Translations under genes and position numbers: made by a program
In this document: positions 1,251-60,708 of the stretch, piece by piece
Layout of the letters: each line of letters opens with the position of its first letter
Numbering within the stretch: the first letter of the stretch is position 1
The notes under the pieces: model-generated
What the model was told of the DNA's origin: nothing
Databases searched by the model: none
The model's input: only the letters and a program-made list of their open reading frames with translations
DNA from: Ginglymostoma cirratum
Lineage: Eukaryota
Reading direction: 5' to 3'
Assembly (NCBI GenBank): GCA_024137785.1
Contig: JAHRHZ010000268.1
Coordinates: 11,230,609-11,294,608, forward strand
Length of the DNA stretch: 64,000 nucleotides

Positions 1251-3714
1251 CAAGCTTGTCTCATGCAGTGTTTGTGTGATTGTAGTCAATTTTGAAAGAA
1301 ATTGGGATTAAAAAAATGTAATCAATATCATGGTATTGGTAGATCTAATCACGTCCATGGGAAGTTGCTTCATCTACATCTAACGGCTTGGATTTAGAAT
1401 TGGGATTTTGGAATTTGCCAGTTCTGATATTTGGATTTTTTGAGCTTGAATGGAAATATCTGATATGAGTTCTAATTCCTCAGATTTATTGCAGTGTTCC
1501 AATGTGCTGTTGACCAGCCATTTGCCTTCCACCCTCTAAACTTTGGGCAAACCAAAGGTTTGCTGCCCACATGCTAACCCGTACAAATTTCCACTGATGT
1601 ACATTGGCTCAAAAGAGATACTCTGAGATACTTTGTGTTGCCATGGTAAATTGAGGTAGATGTGGTATCTGAAAATGGCAGTCTTTGAGCCATTTGTGAG
1701 TCTTGTGCACTGCACGGCAAACAATGTGATCATGGGAGCCAATATTCTTCAGAATAGCATTGATAGGCTCCATTTCTTTAGCAAGGTGGCAAGATGAGCA
1801 AATGGTTAGGTTCAACTTATGAGATTGCTGATCAGATCTAACCCCATGGTGCATGGAGCTACACAGACCCCAAAGTTTGTTTAATCAGTGAGGGTAACAT
1901 TTGAGAAACATATTAAGCAAACTGTTTTATGCAGGAATTATGGAGTGGCCACCCAACTGGTATTTTCCAGTAACAGAATGCTGTAGGCAGTACAAGAAGA
2001 CATTCTGCCTGCCACACAACTAAGTAATGTAAAGTATGAATTTCAGTGTTGGTACAACTCCAGGTACATAGGCCACATGAAACAGCAATTGGTCGATTGA
2101 ATTATACAGCATGTTCCTTCAGTTCTTCATAATAAGCAAAGTACACACTGTTATTTACCAGTCTGCGCTTGCAGAACCAGAAACAAAATGTCTGTGTTAA
2201 TATGTGATTCAGTGATTGGGTTGCATGATCCTGATTGCACCAATAGCTGCACTAAGAATCAATAAAGGCAAGATCATAATGAGGCTTGTTTGTGCTCGCA
2301 AGAAGGGCTGTGCTTTCAAAGACAGATTGGATGTATTCAAGCCTGATGAATAGTTCTGGAGCTTGTGGTACCTTTTAACTAACTGTTGCTTTCTCTATGG
2401 GAGTAGCTTGGCCAATCCCTGCCAACTTGCCAATCAGTTTACATCATTTTCTTTATAGTATAAATTATTGAGAATGTTTGAAATATGGCATTCTTGTGCT
2501 TGTCATTATCAGGGGTACCACATTTTAGTGGTGAGACTCCACTGGGGTCCTCCCTACCTGTTAGTAAATTGTAAAAAAAAAATATAAATTTGTCTATTCA
2601 AAGAAGAATAGTTAACTACTTTGGTGTCCTAACTAAAAACGTTTCCCAAATGATTTTGTTTTCAGGCTTTGCTATGCATAAATTGGATGCTATTTTTGAT
2701 TCAAAGCATGCCTTGACTTCAGAAGTAATTCGTTTGTTGTGTAGCACTAACCCAAAGAAGCGATTAAGGTGCCATTAAAATGCAGATCCTTTTAATAATA
2801 CTCTTGTGCTGACAGGGCTGTCAACACCACAGGAATGTTTAAGTTTTGAAGCTGGTGATGCAGATTCCAAATCCTTGTACAGATTAAGAGCCATGCTTAT
2901 CCTGTTAAGAATGATATGTGTCAACATAGATGTATTTTAGTACATGTTAAATTATTGCAGTATTTACCACAGTAATATTCTGTAGCAGTAAAACATTGTA
3001 AGGCTTTTGTGTTTCTGAAGAGAGTTATAAATGAAGATGTTGTAAAAAGATTTTAATACCTAAATATTCCCCTCTCTAATGTTTTTAAAAGTGTTGACTG
3101 TTTGATGGAATGTGATTTTGTGAATGCTACATGAGTTCTTGCCAATACCTGTCTGAACTCTGTTAACTCAATATTGACCTCTGTATGGTTCAACTGTTCA
3201 CAGGTGAACTTGTCAACGCTTGAGTCTGAGTTTAGTCAGTTACAGTTATATGGAAGTTGATGTATTATACAGAAATGCTGATAATTCAAGTACAATGGCA
3301 TATTAATTATGTGAAAAAGTGCAGTAATTTTGGTCTAATATGCAAATACTTTTGGAACGTTGGTGCTCTTGTAATTTTGACACTTGACAGTTGGTTGTTT
3401 TAAACTGACCAAGAGTGGATATTTCATGCAATTCAGCAAAGTAGATCTGTTAATGTATCAATCTGGTGAAACTGAACCAGGGTTGAACAACTAAACTGCC
3501 TGACCACACAAAAAGAAGCAAAGATGAACTGATTTGAAGGGAAACTGTTACTGAGTTTGAAATAAGAATCACCACTGAAGCCATTTCTATCTGAGGGGGA
3601 GGTACTGGAGGATAAAGGGAATGGGAGTTGAAATGTGAGTGCAGTGTTTAGCCTAGTCACTGATTCTGATTGATAGCCGCTCTTGTAATTTGTAAAGTAA
3701 TCTGAAGTAATGTA

Positions 3715-3880
3715 ACCATTGTTACCATGACAACATGATTCACTCGTCAGACTGGTTTTATAAGCAATTCCAGTGATTGGTTGGAGGTAACTGGAATCCG
3801 TTGCTTTGATATGCTGTCAAGTCACATGCTTCTTGGGGTGGGGAGTTTCTAGGCTGATAATTAATGTATGACGACTCAAG
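3715..3880 (+). promoter_or_regulatory. Candidate internal promoter for the short NCK1 isoform
   Basis: RFX X-box GTTACCATGACAAC (3721-3734), TGATTCA and CGTCA, inverted CCAAT (ATTGG 3776-3780), E-box GTCACATG (3821-3828), GT-box and kB-like GGGGTGGGGAGTTTCT (3835-3850), all within ~220 bp of the ATG in TE-free sequence. Confidence 0.45.
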
Positions 3881-3939
3881 ATTTCTGTCAGACTTGCATT
3901 TCTGAGCTGAACACAGAGAGGTAAAGGAAAGCAAACAAA

Positions 3940-3973
3940 ATGGAATCAGTTAATATTATCAAGCAGTTCTTTG
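3940..3973 (+). CDS. NCK1: Coding part of putative alternative first exon of the short NCK1 isoform (MESVNIIKQFF-G)
   Basis: Kozak-like AAAATGG, 11 codons plus 1 nt, then donor G|GTAAGT. Phase 1 matches the acceptor at 35381, giving [21 protein letters not shown], similar to recalled human isoform 2 [21 protein letters not shown]. Confidence 0.8.
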
Positions 3974-4554
3974 GTAAGTTACAAGTTTCCAATCAATTGG
4001 TAATCCATGGTCCAGTCAGTTTCATGCTTGCATTTTGCGGAGTCAGTTTAGGTGCACATACCTGATTTAATTTTATGTTTAGTTTTTAATGTCGATCGTG
4101 TTTTATTTCATCTATTTTGTATGTACCAAGTTGTTGGATTTAAAATAGTTAGTGTCCTTTCGGTAGGAAATGAATAGGTGAGTTAATTGATTTGAGCTTA
4201 TTTTACCGCTCTCGTATTGTATTAAGCTATACTAACATATCATCATTCCAATGCTCAAATTTTTGGTACAATTTCCAGTTTCAGACCGGAGTTAAGATTA
4301 CTCTCGTGGCTCCAACAACTTGTTAAATCTTGACTTCAAGTGAAACCTTTTTCTTCCCCATTTCAAGCCACACACTGGCTTTTGGGTTTTTTTTTGTAAG
4401 CAGGGAAAGTTTTGACTGCTGGTCATGATAATGTCATCTGCTGAACACATAATTGGAAGATTTTATGTGTTTGCTTTCTTGCATTTTACATTGCAATAGG
4501 AGGCAAATAAAGTTGGAGAACTGTATTATTTAAGTTTTGTAATAAGTTGGGGAG

Positions 4555-10077: not shown

Positions 10078-10181
10078 TTTATTGTTGGATTACAGGTACA
10101 TAAACTGGTGGAATGATTTATTGTNNNNNNNNNNATGATTTATTGTTGGATTACAGGTACATAAACTGGTGGAATGATTTA
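10078..10181. repeat. 39-bp tandem repeat spanning a 10-N assembly gap (10125-10134)
   Basis: Unit tttattgttggattacaggtacataaactggtggaatga at 10078-10116 and 10139-10177, with partial units next to the Ns. Confidence 0.85.
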
Positions 10182-11038: not shown

Positions 11039-11484
11039 GAATAAAGTGTAGTTTATTGCGAATCACCACTCACAAGAATAGGCTCTATATTAGCATAGTG
11101 CAGACCTAACCTTGTGTCTGCCTTCCACGAGATCCTACTTCATTCTCCCACAAACTACTTAGCACCATCCACTTTGATGTTTTCCTAATTGCACTCAACC
11201 AATCATTAATCCTTTTGGACCCATATTCAACAGTTATGATGTAACCAGGCAGAACTGACATGGCTTTGTGAAAGACAGATCAATGTCCATGACCTTTTTG
11301 AGGAAGCTATGTTCATGTAGATGGAAGGGGACTGGTTAGTGATGTACAGATTTCTAAAAGGCATTTTATAAGGTGCCATATCAAAGGTTGCTGCACAAGA
11401 TAAGAACACACAGTCTAGAGGTAACATATCAGCATGATTACAGAATTAGTTAACTAACTGAAAGCAGACAGTAGGAATCAATTG

Positions 11485-12170
11485 TATCAGAGATATCGTA
11501 CCCGTTGTGGCTTCCTCTACATCGGGGAAACCAAGCGGAGGCTTGGGGACTGCTTTGCAGAACACCTGCGCTCAGTTCGCAACAAACAACTGCACCTCCC
11601 AGTCGCGAACCATTTCAACTCCCCCTCCCATTCCTCAGATGACATGTCCATCCTGGGCCTCCTGCAATGCCACAGTGATGCCACCCGAAGGCTGCAGGAA
11701 CAGCAAATCATATTCAGCCTGGGAACCCTGCAGCCCAATGGCATCAATGTGGATTTCACAGCTTCAAAATCTCCCCTCCCCCAACCGCATCCCAAAACCA
11801 GCCCAGCTCATCTCCACCTCCCTAACCTGTTTTTCCTCTCACCTCAAGCCACACCCCCATCTCCTATCTACTAACATCATCCCGCCCCCTTGACCTGTCC
11901 GTCCTCCCTGGACTGACCTATCTCCTCCCTACCCCCCCACCTACACTCACCTTTACTGGCTCCATCCCCGCCTCTTCGACTTGTCTGCCTCCTCTCCACC
12001 TATCCTCTCCTCTATCCATCCTCTATCCACCTCCCCCTCTCTCCCTATTTATTTCAGAACCCTCTTCCCCTCCCCCATTTCTGATGAAGGGTTTAGGCCC
12101 GAAACGTCAAGTTTTCCTGCTCCTATGATGCTGCTTGACCTGCTGTGTTCATCCAGGCCCATGCTTGTTA
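11485..12170 (+). mobile_element. 5'-truncated Penelope-like retroelement (family A) with 15-bp TSD
   Basis: GIY-YIG ORF CGFLYIGETKRRLGDCFAEH...VANHFN...LGTLQPNGIN; TSD agtaggaatcaattg at 11470-11484 and 12171-12185. Confidence 0.9.
12078..12112 (+). ncRNA. Minimal type I hammerhead ribozyme motif (Penelope-borne)
   Basis: CUGAUGA, stem II (GGG UUUAGG CCC), GAAA, palindromic ACGU stem III and GUC cleavage triplet. Confidence 0.7.
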
Positions 12171-21553: not shown

Positions 21554-22996
21554 GATTAACCCTGTAGTTGATATTCTTCATTGCTGGAACATTCTCCTCT
21601 TTATTCTCTCAAGGATCCTCACATCCTTCCTAAAGTCTGGTGACCAGAACAGGGTATGATTCTCCAATTGTGGCCTATCTAGAGCTTTATAGGTGTTCAG
21701 TATGTGTGCTGCTCTGTGCTCCATTTTTTTGCCCATTTTTAACCTGTTCTTAGTTCTTGACGGAGTCGCTGCTTCAATCACTAACCTTGTACATTTCATA
21801 AGTTGACAGTCTTTTGTCTACAATGATTTTCCAGTGTTCTGTCCTAAATTTCTTGGGATATGAAGGCAAGATTTAAATCTCCTCTCTAGACTCTTAAAGC
21901 ATTGGAATCAATTAATTTCTAATAACTGTGAACCATTGCATCATAACTTATGACACTTAAATCAATTCCGATTGTTGTGTTCTTAAAAACAAAAGTCAGA
22001 TTTTTGTTTTACATCTTGAGACTTTCTCGTACCAGACAGAAACCTGGTGAACCAACAATATTTCCTGAAAACCTCATCATCCATTAGGGCAGTATGCTCA
22101 GACTCATAACAAATATTGCAATTCTGTGAAACTGCACTGACTCACATTTAGCCTCTGACTACTGCCCAGAATAAAAGAAAACTGCACCAAGTTTCTTCAG
22201 TAACAATAAAAAAAACTTACTCTTTGTTACTGTTTTTATTAAAATTATTTCTAATTTATATAACTTAAACTTTTCCCTTTTTAAAATTCTCTTGTGTGTA
22301 TATGCAAAGGGCTGCACACAGACACAGCAGCGAGGCAGACATTCAGGGAAAGGAAGGGTGTTGAGCAGGAGCTATGTGGGAGGACTTCATAGTTTTCCTT
22401 TTATATGTTAAAATTTATTTTATAAGTCATTTCACTTAGAAAACTTTAACAATGTTAGGTATTTAACTTTACATGGTATAATGATTTAATTTTTTTCTGA
22501 AAGGAATTGTCCAACAGAACTTTAGTTTTTGTGTTTGGTTCTAATGGGGAAAATCTGAATTGCTTAACATTGTTTTATTTGACGTTTTGTTTCTCAGGGA
22601 CATATATAAGCATTAAGTGAGGAATTAGTCTAGTGTGGAATCACAGACTTCTAACAGCACATTAACTGTCGTCTTACCAAGCATTGATAGTTTTTATTTC
22701 TTTTATATGCAAGCCTTTCCTATTTGTAGGTTCAACTTCCTCCCCTTTACCAACACAACACCCACCATGTCATCTGCTCAGATAGTTGCACATCATTTGG
22801 GTGTCATTAAAGAACATAGTCTTGATGCTAACCTTGTCAAGGCATTTCAAACCATCAAGCAAATATGTTACAGGGCTTGGAGATCAATGCGTAGTCTGGG
22901 AATTGTTGAAGCAGTTTTGCCATTTTACTGGTTGGAAGAGAATTACTAGTCAGAAACCAAAACACGACAAGACAAAAAATAATTGTGTAAATAATT

Positions 22997-23889
22997 TCAG
23001 AGATAGTCGGAACTGCAGATGCTGGAGAATCTGAGATAACAATGTGTAGATTGGGATGAACACAGCAGGCCAAGCAGCATCAGAGGAGCAGGAAAACTGA
23101 CGTTTCGGGCCTAGACCCTTCTTCAGAAATGGGGGAATGGAAGGAGGTTCTGAAATAAATAGGGAGAGAGGGGGAGGCGGATAGAAGATGGATAAAGGAG
23201 AAGATAGGTGGAGAGGAGACAGACAGGTCAAAGAGGCGGGGATGGAGCCAGTGAAGGTGAGTGTAGGTGGGGAGTTAGGGAGGGGATTGGTCAGTCCAGG
23301 GAGGACTGACAGGTCAAGGGGGCGGGATGAGGCTAGTAGGTAGGAGATGGGGATGGGGCTTGAGGTGGGAGGAGGGGTTAGGTGGGGAGAAGGACAGGTT
23401 AGGGAGGCGGGGACGAGCTGGGCTGGTTTTGGGATGTGGTAGGGGGAGGGGACTTCACAAGCTTCAAACTCTCCCCTCCCCCAACTGCATCCCAAAACCA
23501 GCCCAGCTCATCCCTGCCTCCCTAATCTGTCCTTCCTCTCACCTATCCCCTCGTCCCACCTCAAGCCCCATCCCCATCTCCTACCTACTAGCCTCATCCC
23601 GCCCCCTTGACCTGTCCGTCCTCCCTGGGCTGACCTATCTCCTCCCTAACTCCCCACTGACACTCACCTTTACTGGCTCCATCCCCACCTCTTTGACCGG
23701 TCTGTCTCCTCTCCACCTATCTTCTCCTTATCCATCTTCTATCTGCCTCCCTCCTCTCCCTATTTATTTCAGAACCCCCTTCCCCGCCCCTATTTCTAAA
23801 GAAGAGTCTAGGCCCGAAGCGTCAGCTTTCTTGCTCCTCTGATGCTGCTTGGCCTGCTGTGTTCATCCGGCTCCACACCTTGTTATCTC
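22997..23889. mobile_element. Fold-back Penelope insertion (two inverted ~420-bp arms) with 13-bp TSD
   Basis: 23032-23450 is the reverse complement of ~23475-23889; TSD tgtgtaaataatt at 22984-22996 and 23890-23902. Confidence 0.9.
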
Positions 23890-34963: not shown

Positions 34964-35380
34964 AAATCAATTGTAGTGACCAGCTGCTTCCGACTAAGAT
35001 TAAGATTAGGAGGTATATCTTGCCAACGTGCAGATCTTTAGTCAACAATGTAAATAGTGTAGTGGATTCGGTGAAATGATTTCTTATTTAAAAGTGATTA
35101 TGTTATGGAAAATAACATTGCACAATAAGTTCTTTGAGTGCTAAGCAAATATAAATGAGCTAAATGATCTTGTATATGAGCACTTCAACTTTTGCAGTGA
35201 AGACTTTTAAAGCAATCCACTCTATTTCCTTACAACTACATACGTATTTATAACCACAGTATAGTGCAGCTAATTTATCTGTGAAATGCTGCTTAGTATT
35301 TTTATTCCTTCGTGCATGAAGTGCCTTTGCATTCATGGCTGACGTACAGCACTGTAATAGTTTCTGTTTTTCCTTTTCAG

Positions 35381-36093
35381 GAATCGGAAAAGTGAAACGG
35401 AAACCAAGTATTCGTGACACTGCATCCAATGCAGATGCGGATGGTTACCCAGACAATGGAGAACGTCTATATGATTTGAATGCTCCTGCTTATGTCAAGT
35501 TCAACTACACAGCAGAGAGAGATGATGAGCTATCTTTGGTTAAAGGAACAAAAGTTACCGTCATGGAAAAGTGCAGCGATGGCTGGTGGAGGGGTAGTTA
35601 TAATGGACAAACTGGTTGGTTTCCTTCAAATTATGTCATGGAAGATCTTGAGGGCACCACAGTCGAACCTATGGGATCATTGACAGAAAGACTAGCAGTT
35701 GTGATCAGTGCACACAATGCTAAAGTACTTCATGTTGTGCAGGCTCTATACCCATTTAGTTCTTCGAATGAAGAGGAGCTTAATTTCGAGAAGGGTGAAG
35801 TGATGGATGTTCTTGAGAAACCAGAAAATGATCCAGAGTGGTGGAAATGTAGGAAGGCTGATGGGCAAGTAGGTCTGGTACCTAAGAACTATGTGAATAT
35901 TGTGCAAACATCACCACCAGTCATTAGCCTTGGTCCAACACCACCTCGATGTGACTACATAGGAGCAGCAACTACTGGCAGGTTTGCTGGTAGTCCGTGG
36001 TATTATGGAAAGATTACAAGGCATCAAGGAGAAGTGGCTCTGAATGAAAGAGGAGTTGATGGCGATTTCATAATTCGAGACAGCGAGTCATCA
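35381..36093 (+). CDS. NCK1: NCK1 internal coding exon (linker, SH3-2, SH3-3, start of SH2)
   Basis: Translation [10 protein letters not shown]...[16 protein letters not shown]...[15 protein letters not shown]...[20 protein letters not shown]...[10 protein letters not shown]...IRDSESS matches NCK1 rather than NCK2. Acceptor tttccttttcag|GA (phase 1), donor TCA|gtaagt (phase 0), 713 nt. Confidence 0.97.
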
Positions 36094-36794: not shown

Positions 36795-36989
36795 CCCAAT
36801 GACTTCTCTGTGTCTTTGAAGGCCCAAAACAAAAACAAGCACTTCAAGGTACAGTTGAAGCAAGGTCTCTACTGCATTGGACAGCGCAAATTTGACAGTA
36901 TGGAAGATTTAGTGGAACATTACAAAAAAGCTCCAATTTTCACAAGCGAACAGGGAGAGAAATTGTTTTTAGTTAAACCTTTATCTTAA
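36795..36989 (+). CDS. NCK1: NCK1 terminal coding exon (rest of SH2 plus stop)
   Basis: Acceptor tttttttacag|CCC, phase 0 matching the upstream donor across a 701-nt intron. Translation [22 protein letters not shown]...[27 protein letters not shown] at 36987-36989. Confidence 0.97.
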
Positions 36990-40718: not shown

Positions 40719-41460
40719 CCTAATCTCTTGATTTTAGGATTCTGTGTCCATTTGTTACACAAATAAGAGCCAGACGTGATTGACCTTAAAATGTGTTTTT
40801 GAGCAGAAGGTGACAAAATAATTGGTTGGTGTTGCATGCTGGGTTTTTGAGAGACGGTTGTGTGGTAATTCAAATCTGAGTTGGATGGCGGTGTAGACAG
40901 TTCCCAAATATTAACAGAGCTGAGGAAATGTGAAAAGGGAAGTAGAGAGACAAAGAGCCAATAGAATAGCTTGACAGATAATATCAGATGGAATCCAAAG
41001 GCTTTCTATTGGCATGTGAACAGTAGCATCAATCGAGGGGGAGAAAGAGGTAGAACAACCTGGTTGAGGAACAAAATGAGCACTTTGTCCTCTACTTTGG
41101 TAAACATCAATGCAATGTAAATGCCATCGCAAACCAGGAGACTGCCAGGATACTGGATGAAATAAAAATGGGTGGTGAGAAGATACTAGATAAGCAGGCT
41201 CCACACAAAGTGGATGTATTTCCTGGCCTGGATATCCAGAAGCTGCTGATCCAATCTCCTGTATTTACAAGGTGCCAAAAGTTTGGAGGATTGTGTAAAT
41301 TTACCCCCTTATCCACAAAGAAGGCGAGTAGGTAAAGCTAGCATTTAAAGGCAGGCCAGTTGATCAACAGTCGTGGGGTAATATTTATATGCAATAATCT
41401 GTGAAAATTAACACCCATTTGGTCAAGTGTAAGAGATAAAAGAAGACTCAGCAAAGTCCC

Positions 41461-42063
41461 GAACCATTTCAACTCCCCCTCCCATTCCTCAGATGACATG
41501 TCCATCCTGGGCCTCCTGCAATGCCACAGTGATACCACCCGAAGGCTGCAGGAACAGCAAATCGTATTCAGCCTGGGAACCCTGCAGCCCAATGGCATCA
41601 ATGTGGATTTCACAAGCTTCAAAATCTCCCCTCCCCTAACCGCATCCCAAAACCAGCCCAGCTCATCTCCACCTCCCTAACCTGTTTTTCCTCTCACCTC
41701 AAGCCACACCCCCATCTCCTATCTACTAACATCATCCCGCCCCCTTGACCTGTCCATCCTCCCTGGACTGACCTATCTCCTCCCTACCCTCCTACCTACA
41801 CTCACCTTTACTGGCTCCATCCCCGCCTCTTCGACTTGTCTGCCTCCTCTCCACCTATCCTCTCCTCTATCCATCCTCTATCCACCTCCCCCTCTCTCCC
41901 TATTTATTTCAGAACCCTCTTCCCCTCCCCCGTTTCTGATGAAGGGTTTAGGCCCGAAACATCAAGTTTTCCTGCTCCTATGATGCTGCTTGACCTGCTA
42001 TGTTCATCCAGCCCCATGCTTGTTATCTCGGATTCTCCAGCATCTGCAGTACCTTTTATCTCT
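41461..42063 (+). mobile_element. Penelope family A 3' fragment
   Basis: NHFNSPSHS...LGTLQPNGINVDF; near-identical to 11607-12170; hammerhead core at ~41936-41965 with ACGU changed to ACAU. Confidence 0.9.
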
Positions 42064-42199
42064 AAAGACTTATGAACAGTTGTGTTTGACAAATAATTGA
42101 GTTTTAATGAGTGCGTGAGGCCAGTGCAGCTGATATGTATATGAACTTCCACAAGTTGTTTGGTTAAGTATCACTTTAGGCTTGAAAACATATGGGATA

Positions 42200-58250: not shown

Positions 58251-60708
58251 CTCACAAGCTGGAGAGACCAGTTTTGAGTTTTAGCCATCCCAATCTGAGC
58301 AGGGACAAGCACCTAATGCTCCAGGCATGTAAAAGTGAGAGTGATTGAATTTTGCATCTTCAAATTTCAAAGCTGTACATCGTATATAACTGAAACAATC
58401 ACATAGCACTCTTGAAATTTGAAATATTCATCAGCAATATTTGCAATGGATTATCTTAGTTGCAGGAATCTGAAAATCTTCTTAAAATCTGCTTATACAG
58501 TTGTGCATGATGAGGCAATGTATAGCAAAGCTACGCAAAAGTATCAAGATTTATGTCACAGCCAGAATAAAATGATGGTCCCCCATGTAGCATTGCCGTC
58601 AGCGACCACTTATGTTTGCTATTTAAGTTCTTTGTGCTTGTGGCAACAAAAGAAACTACCTGACAAAGTAGCATCTCTGTTTCTGGAGGCAAGTACATTA
58701 TATCATTAATATATAGATATCACAGTGGTACATAAATCAGAAATCAATGTACTGTACAAAAATAAATCTAGATTGTGTTCAATGTCGCAACATTCAGATT
58801 TGTTTAAACAAATAATTATCAATGGCTATTAATTAGGTTAGTTTCAAAGTGAAATTTCAATGTTAATGGGCCAATGGTAATTTAGCAAATTATCCCACGC
58901 CTTCAGGGTGGTAAAACAAGCAAGGTTTGATTAGCTGGCAGATGCTGTTGTAGATTATAAGAAGAAATTACATAAATCTAACTCAGCAATAAAAATATCT
59001 CCAGGCAGCCATTTGACTGATCATGAAAGAACCTTCAATCCCTTACGCAACTGTTAGACAAAAAATGACATTGCCAGGCCTCATTAACACAGCAGCTGAA
59101 GAAAGTACGTCTTTATAACACAGCTCCTGGGCAAAAGGAGAGAAGCAAAAGTTATTGCAAATGTAGTAAAATCCAGTTGTTGAACAGTCTTTCAATTTAG
59201 GGCTCAGAAACAATTATGCGTTTCAGTGGGAAGTGAAACCCCCATCCGCTCCCCCCACCAACTCCCCATGTTTCACGCATGTGTTTACAATGGCATTGCC
59301 TTATTTACTGTCACATAGGGGCAGGGAGTCTTTTTTTGAGGTTAATTTATAATTTCTCACTGTTATAGGAGCGATCTCAGTTTTTCAAGGTAAAATTTGT
59401 CTTTTTTCATTGTTCAGACCACCCCTTATCATTGACAAAGGTGGTTTTCTAGAGATGCTTTTACTTTGTTGTCAGCAAGACAATATCATAAATTCCCCCC
59501 CCCCAACAAAAATAAAGACAGAATCCCCCGTGTCCTCACATATCACCCCACCAACCTTCGCATCCGCCGTATCATTCTCTGCTACTTCCGCCACCTACAA
59601 TCTGACCCCATAACCAAAGACATATTTCCCTCCCCACCCCTATCTGCCTTTCGTAGGGACCGCTCTGTCCGCAACTCCCTCATCCGATCCACACTCCCCA
59701 CCAACCCCACCACCGCCAGCACCTTTCCCTGAAACTGCAGGAAGTACTACAACTGCCCCTACACCTTCCCCTTCACCTCCATTCAAGGCACAAAACAAAT
59801 GTTCCACATCAGACATGGGTTTACCTGCACATCTGTCAACTTGGTCTCTTGCATCTGCTGCTCCCCATGTGATCTCCTCCACATCGGTGAGACCAAGCAT
59901 AGACTCGGAGACCATTTCGTAGAGCATCTGCGCTCTGTATGCGACAAACAACACCTTCTGCTTGCCAACCAGTTTAACTCCCCAGCCCACTCCCTGAGTG
60001 ACATGTCCATCCTGGACCTAAATATGGAATTCACCAGTTTTAAGATCTCCCCAGCCCTGGGCTCCTTCCATGACCAACCCCCCACCCTCTCATCCTCGCC
60101 TCTTTGACCTGACACAACCTGTCCATCTTCTCTCCCACCTATCCACCCCTCCCATCTCATTGACCAATCCCCACCACTCCCTACATGCACTCACCTATCA
60201 CCATACCACCTACCTTCCCCAGCCCACCCCTCTCTCTCTATTTATTTCCCAGCTCCCTTCCCCTCCCCATTTCTGAAGAAGGCTCCCAACCTGAAACATC
60301 AACTTTCCTGCTCCTCTGATGCTGCCAGTTCCTCCAGTTCCACACTGTGTTATCTCTGACTCCAGCATCTGCAGTTCTTGCTATCCCTGACATCATTTTA
60401 TTCCAGCTGTGACAAAAATATTGATATTTTTGTGTAGCTTTGGTATACATTGCTTCATCATGCATTACTGTATAAGCAGATTTTAAGAAGATTACTCAGA
60501 TTGTCACAACTAAGATAAAACAACGTTGCAAATATTGTTGATAATATTTCAAATTTCAAGAGTGCTGTGTAATTGTTTCAGTACAGGTTTGAAATTGGAA
60601 GGTGCAAAATTCAATCCCTCTCACTTTTACATGCCTGGACCATAATGTGCTTGTGGCTGTTCAGATCAGGATGGCCAAAACTCAAAACTGGTCTCTCCAC
60701 CTCATGAG
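58251..60708. repeat. Inverted repeat with ~320-bp arms (58251-58577 and 60391-60708)
   Basis: For example ggagagaccagttttgagtttt / aaaactcaaaactggtctctcc and gcactcttgaaatttgaaatatt / aatatttcaaatttcaagagtgc; roughly 80% identity by eye. Confidence 0.85.
59490..60388 (+). mobile_element. 5'-truncated Penelope-like element
   Basis: DRIPRVLTYHP...PPLSAFRRDRS; FTCTSVNLVSCICC...HIGETKHRLGDHFVEH; degenerate hammerhead at ~60273-60300. Confidence 0.85.

Follow-up and report, generated by a model that had tools for sequence, protein, structure and literature searches.

The window analysed here, a stretch of 64,000 nucleotides from Ginglymostoma cirratum, holds the 3' part of the NCK1 gene (Table 1). 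The gene was identified by a protein search with the shared exon, in which the top matches were NCK1 at 94%. The window reads IGKVKRK, as does NCK1, whereas NCK2 records are of the LGKTKRK type. An alternative first coding exon is separated from the shared exon by an intron of 31,407 nt (3974-35380). Its start codon, read from the sequence as the ATG at 3940, stands in the context AAAATGG, and an in-frame TAA at 3922-3924 makes it the first in-frame methionine. When joined, the three coding segments give a short NCK1 CDS of 942 nt and 313 aa with a single terminal stop. A 34-nt coding exon with this start context, a phase-1 donor and a product of this length had been proposed in a preliminary description of this DNA, and all of these were found in the sequence. 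The first 12 residues are those of Rhincodon NCK1 X2 (P0126) and Pristis X3 (P0128).

No SH3-1 motif was found in a six-frame search of the 64-kb window. The canonical SH3-1 exon is therefore placed upstream of the window, and the alternative exon would lie in the intron that follows it. No tRNAs and only three tandem repeats, all weak, were detected in the window, and ten N occupy positions 10125-10134. Elements whose translations resemble one another, likely LINE/SINE-derived repeats, are scattered within and after the gene at about 1000-1120, 11460-12130, 22950-23840, 41340-42075 and 59610-60190.

Table 1. Features of the short NCK1 transcript and its upstream region (window coordinates)
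Feature	Position	Strand	Remarks
RFX X-box-like motif (3721-3734); reverse CCAAT (3776-3780)	3721..3780	+	Candidate promoter motifs by consensus
Conserved non-coding block with E-box-like TCACATG (3822-3828) and TGATAA (3855-3860)	3808..3863	+	Matches chimaera
5' untranslated exon part covered by spliced contigs	3896..3939	+	Contigs begin at 3896/3904; no 5' loose ends
Coding part of alternative exon	3940..3973	+	34 nt; 11 codons and first base of codon 12
Phase-1 splice donor GTAAGT	3974..3979	+	Context TTG/GTAAGT; contigs leave window sequence here
Splice acceptor AG	35379..35380	+	Pyrimidines at 17/20 preceding positions
Shared exon: IGKVKRK, remaining linker 1, SH3-2, SH3-3, start of SH2	35381..36093	+	713 nt
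Last coding exon: remaining SH2 and stop	36795..36989	+	195 nt

Splice junction and upstream region

Nine sequencing runs were listed, none on record as RNA, and four of the nine were compared with the window. Runs X1 and X2 come from the same single sample, presumed by us to be RNA (a guess), and are 99+% alike to the window. A contig of run X1 matches 3904-3974 and one of run X2 matches 3896-3974, both with zero differences, and both go on into the letters of window 35382-35411, a 30-mer that occurs once in the window. Since the G at 3974 is the same letter as the G at 35381, the junction in the contigs is 3973-to-35381, which is exactly the join that the preliminary description had named as its check. 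The depth of these contigs is low, at 3-4, in two runs of one sample. In runs X3 and X6, from relatives 90-95% alike, the donor is read straight through, unspliced. Among the 40 rows listed of a longer table of contig substitutions, none falls in 3913-4038. Further unspliced contigs at 3697-3862 (run X1) and 3301-3486 (run X2) could represent leader, pre-mRNA or DNA.

The significance of an ATG followed by a donor was assessed within the window. An open phase-1 ATG lies within 151 nt of seven of the nine GTAAGT donors in 1-35380, and of those seven only 3940 combines a purine at -3 with G at +4. With the looser donor G/GTRAG, two strong-context cases were counted on the + strand and three on the minus-strand control. 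The ATG-donor pattern by itself is weak, being near chance level; the exon is raised above chance because of the spliced contigs and the conservation across species.

The contig ends at 3896 and 3904 need not mark a transcription start. The non-coding block further upstream is likely a promoter or leader element: against the back-translated extension of the chimaera model P0137 it scored 27.3, and the highest of 60 intron controls reached 20.0. Beyond chimaera, none of seven bony-vertebrate extensions scored above all 60 controls, the best having 1/60 and 2/60 controls as high. Several models from fish and salamanders contain SHG, VTW or GHV in their upstream extensions; these triplets could be read from a similar E-box, with no significant alignment. 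The motifs at 3721-3860 are named RFX X-box-like, CCAAT, E-box and GATA-like by consensus, and RFX-like matches number two in the window, counting both strands. It is possible that the 3940 exon is internal, with AG candidates upstream that are weak (best 13/20 pyrimidines vs 17/20 at 35379-35380). Seven upstream ATGs between 3710 and 3924 open frames of 1-18 codons and would be uORFs only if transcription begins upstream of about 3870.

Conservation of the short isoform

With the shared exon as query, 918 proteins were found, of which 120 were listed, and cluster look-ups added members. Of 259 proteins compared, 216 carried an IGKVK-type anchor: 126 canonical, 71 alternative-type (Met at -12 and Lys at -5) and 19 with other starts. 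The 71 alternative-type proteins give 29 distinct peptides, which are related to one another and not independent. In RefSeq, short isoforms with the 12-residue start are annotated in Rhincodon, Pristis, Mobula, Rhinoraja, Hemiscyllium/Chiloscyllium and Callorhinchus, and seven chondrichthyan records carry orthologous peptides. The same short isoform is annotated in Erpetoichthys, Polyodon, Acipenser, Amia, Lepisosteus (with an upstream extension) and many teleosts, as well as in Latimeria, Protopterus, a caecilian, salamanders, frogs and mammals. These RefSeq isoforms are gene models, not observed proteins.

The proposal that the exon is conserved from shark to mammal was thus borne out, with chimaera, gar and coelacanth, the groups singled out beforehand, among the lineages that have it. 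The peptide given beforehand for human NCK1 agrees in all 12 letters with the one in NCK1 records named as dog/seal, camel and chinchilla. No human-named short NCK1 record was among the 15 listed of 274 cluster members, and no bird or reptile NCK1 was among the records listed. None of 55 further cluster representatives, which sample cyclostomes and NCK2, has the alternative peptide, but as these are mostly full-length forms the result is no evidence of its absence there; the lamprey cluster (P0414), of eight members labelled isoform X1, is known here by its representative. In the full-length Nck of cyclostomes (hagfish P0411, lamprey P0414) the linker helix before the GKVKRK patch is shortened, so that the activation motif would differ from that of jawed vertebrates. 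An origin in the jawed-vertebrate ancestor had been put forward, and the short isoforms annotated from chimaera to mammals uphold it as a minimum age; by this comparison of sequences the exon would be at least that old. The description of the exon as hidden did not hold, the isoform being already in RefSeq as X2/X3 in several sharks and rays.

The window fits the peptide type M-[DEN]-x-x-[NK]-h-h-K-x-h-h, which stands in place of residues 1-76. Profiles for ranking were built without chondrichthyan sequences. They placed 3940 first among the 68,643 stop-free 11-mers of the window (27.3 vs 19.5), both when made from 24 bony-vertebrate peptides and when made from seven mammalian ones. When the two filter columns were left out it ranked fifth among the same 68,643. 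Across 39 isoforms, the 12 residues have a mean pairwise identity of 0.60, compared to 0.54-0.56 for linkers 2 and 3; the domains, at 0.86-0.87 across short isoforms, stand above the peptide, and KVKRK is 99% conserved. The exon is almost certainly real and under selection.

Two short models, Pristis X2 (P0134) and Ambystoma X2 (P0106), have about 20 extra residues between the alternative start and IGKVK, which suggests a further cassette exon or an alternative splice site. A MetaClust record of 292 aa (P0297) holds a decayed NCK1-like sequence whose beginning is in register with that of the short isoform. Its profile score of 13.3 lies between the 1.8 of the canonical form and the 26.6-44.1 of true peptides. 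The sequence may have arisen as a retrocopy of the short mRNA, in which case germ-line expression would be implied.

What is replaced and what replaces it

The canonical form has 76 residues ahead of IGKVK, ending ASIVKNLKDTLG. In the short form residues 1-76 are exactly replaced, with 12 new residues in register with linker residues 65-76, a segment that includes D73, I67, V68, L71, K69 and K72. According to passages of the papers concerned, D73 is part of the N-WASP-activating motif described in Okrut 2015 (PMC6557995, which gives the motif limits second-hand), linker constructs mutate I67/V68/L71 and K64/K69/K72 and the basic linker 1 recruits actin filaments (both PMC6624021), and the same linker contributes to N-WASP activation (PMC9333988). 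Since the replaced residues comprise SH3.1 and the reported N-WASP-activating segment, the short isoform is predicted from its sequence to be without both of these functional elements but to retain KVKRK. The preliminary description was right that SH3-1 is lost, but the replacement also takes in the N-terminal half of linker 1 and with it the reported N-WASP motif. Passages of PMC7278359 report that SH3.1 residues 4-59 are enough for CD3-epsilon binding and that this contact is of limited relevance in Jurkat cells; for the latter reason CD3-epsilon may not be the key loss. A PxxDY-like motif lies in linker 3 within the shared exon (isoform residues 197-204), with P197, P200 and D203 invariant in 39 short isoforms. 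The same source suggests that this motif could bind SH3.1 in cis (PMC7278359); in the short form it would stand unoccupied.

The 29 distinct peptides share several properties. Residue 2 is D in 21, E in six and N in two, so that a NatB-type start (Met then Asp/Glu/Asn) is present in 29/29, and residue 5 is N or K throughout. Positions -7, -6, -3 and -2 (residues 6, 7, 10 and 11) are hydrophobic in 93-100% and position -10 in 83%, with mostly F at residues 7, 10 and 11. The hydrophobic moment is above that of shuffles (P<0.05) in 24/29 peptides; for the window's own peptide P is 0.16. Net charge over residues 1-19 is +3 to +6. Membrane-inserting helices typically have an aromatic face with a basic cluster after it. 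Proteins that start with Met-Asp/Asn/Glu/Gln are NatB substrates and nearly 100% acetylated, and N-terminal acetylation stabilises N-terminal helices, as stated in passages of PMC11735805.

Structural comparisons were also made. AlphaFold gave residues 1-43 of the short form a pLDDT<50 and no helix, and residues 61-107 of the canonical control behaved likewise, so the prediction does not discriminate. A search for solved-structure look-alikes of the 22-residue peptide returned 0 matches at E up to 10, and an atlas search with residues 1-24 gave no usable match. The new and the canonical 12-mer scored 2.76 in register (shuffle P 0.035), a value that 2.1% of intron 10-mers equal or exceed, and the score at register -3 was 3.1. 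Compared to 26 other Nck-like linkers, the new peptide gave a joint shuffle P of 0.058. An origin by duplication of the canonical exon end is unsupported, likeness to the canonical helix being weak.

Possible roles and relation to known forms

Our preferred reading, tentatively held and drawn from sequence features, is that the new peptide may be a NatB-acetylated amphipathic membrane anchor of the 313-residue NCK1; it is proposed because the peptide is aromatic and in most of its 29 forms amphipathic, has a NatB-type start and precedes KVKRK. Transcription would begin at an intronic promoter near 3700-3900, and the initiator Met would be kept and the N-terminus acetylated by NatB. The 12 residues would form an amphipathic helix on acidic membranes, with the KVKRK basic patch behind it helping to hold the adaptor. 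An adaptor of two SH3 domains and SH2 would thereby be pre-localised at membranes; it could not bind CD3-epsilon-type PxxDY ligands through SH3.1 and would activate N-WASP less directly. Against this stands the window's own peptide, which is not significantly amphipathic (shuffle P 0.16). In addition, exchanges among D, E and N are the most frequent of the conservative kind, and these residues would also fit a helix start or the +4 G, so that residue 2 is compatible with NatB and nothing more. The wider proposal is that a second Nck1 has been retained throughout the jawed vertebrates, a single 34-nt exon exchanging both SH3.1 and the N-WASP-activating helix for an acetylated membrane-anchoring helix; it is conceivable and is held with somewhat more reserve. 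If true, it would mean a membrane-resident, lower-valency Nck1, receptor recruitment uncoupled from N-WASP activation, and retuned Nck/N-WASP condensates.

The peptide might instead be a re-tuned protein-binding helix that still binds the N-WASP/WASP GBD or another partner, keeps the allosteric activation of actin and sheds SH3.1 only. This is rather unlikely, even though the peptide has the same length to the exon junction as the canonical linker and shares with it Lys at -5 and hydrophobic residues at -10, -6 and -2. Of the 26 other Nck-like linkers, 69% have a basic residue at -5 and 73% a hydrophobic one at -2 (-10, -9 and -6 being fixed by the anchor), and the hydrophobic faces of the new and canonical peptides have similar directions, at about 100-120 vs 130 degrees. 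The resemblance of the Nck CRIB-binding motif to N-WASP's own C-terminal region, described in a passage of PMC10182996, was counted on the same side. The weak in-register likeness argues the other way, as do positions -7 and -3, which are hydrophobic in the new peptide but polar in the canonical one. A strict GBD-helix pattern is fitted by the canonical segment and by 0/29 new peptides, and is a weak test, being fitted by 0/26 other linkers too. We regard as doubtful, to a like degree, that the deletion itself is the point, a tissue-specific promoter giving a lower-valency or competing Nck1 whose 12 residues act chiefly as a start, stability or export-type signal. Here SH3.1 and part of the basic linker are gone (+9 over 26 residues vs +3 to +6 over 19), a loss that alone would alter partner choice and condensate behaviour, and promoter-like motifs and a chimaera-conserved block lie upstream; but a mere spacer is unlikely to have retained F/W on the helix face at four positions, together with N/K at residue 5, in all jawed-vertebrate classes sampled. 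It is very improbable that the ATG and the donor stand together by chance, or that the splicing is noise, without any function at the protein level. Such ATG-donor patterns are common and contig depth is low, from one sample, but the exact junction in contigs, the peptides in seven chondrichthyan records and in bony vertebrates, and the first rank given by independent profiles have already largely refuted it.

Work on SH2/SH3 adaptors, on actin assembly driven by N-WASP and on signalling condensates uses Nck1 as a central model. In the available parts of two papers with construct listings (including PMC6624021), the Nck1 constructs derive from the 377-aa form. No study of the short isoform was found in the literature searched, whose scope excluded most subscription papers. 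The word "isoform" has 0 occurrences in the available text of a Nck review (PMC2661883), the available parts of PMC6904212 and PMC10755736 hold nothing further on the short isoform, and "Nck" was not found in the readable supplements of PMC10182996. Already known is the isoform annotated in RefSeq from sharks to mammals, and the exon, judged by its sequence, is the orthologue of that annotated form; what is new is how deeply the exon is conserved and that the reported activation helix is swapped in register. The short isoform would be a natural separation-of-function variant, lacking, from chimaera to mammals, exactly the ligand site of SH3.1 and the activation motif of the linker, and knockouts or reagents against the SH3.1 exon would be expected to spare it.

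The closest known forms are the chondrichthyan NCK1 isoforms X2/X3 of Rhincodon typus (XP_020373233.1), Pristis (XP_051873745.1), Mobula (XP_062902097.1), Hemiscyllium (XP_060690885.1) and Callorhinchus (XP_007885564.1), which, like the window, have 313-314 aa and a 12-residue start ahead of IGKVKRK. They are orthologous to the window form with no essential difference, and none of the records compared is letter-for-letter equal; Rhincodon X2, identical over the first 12 residues, has 99.3% identity over the other 301, which suggests that the shark of the window is a near relative of the whale shark. Mammalian short NCK1 (dog/seal, camel, chinchilla, dolphin, bats) has the same length, junction and pattern, with 5/12 residues of the commonest mammalian peptide identical to the window. 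Human NCK1 isoform 2 is presumably a mammalian short form of the same kind. Canonical linker 1, described in citing passages as holding the N-WASP activation motif (Okrut 2015) and as a phase-separation linker (Banjade 2015), resembles the new peptide in preceding IGKVKRK and in having Lys and three hydrophobic positions in register. Unlike it, the new peptide is aromatic and less basic, with a wider, shifted hydrophobic face and a free N-terminus, and the two have no significant homology. The new peptide is without a Gly-2 for myristate. The N-terminal helices of Arf/Arl are amphipathic membrane helices to which it may be likened by analogy only. A further analogy, and only that, is alpha-synuclein, a NatB substrate starting with Met-Asp according to a passage of PMC11735805, which resembles the new peptide in its Met-Asp/Glu/Asn start and adjoining basic residues and, in so far as the new peptide is amphipathic, in that pattern.
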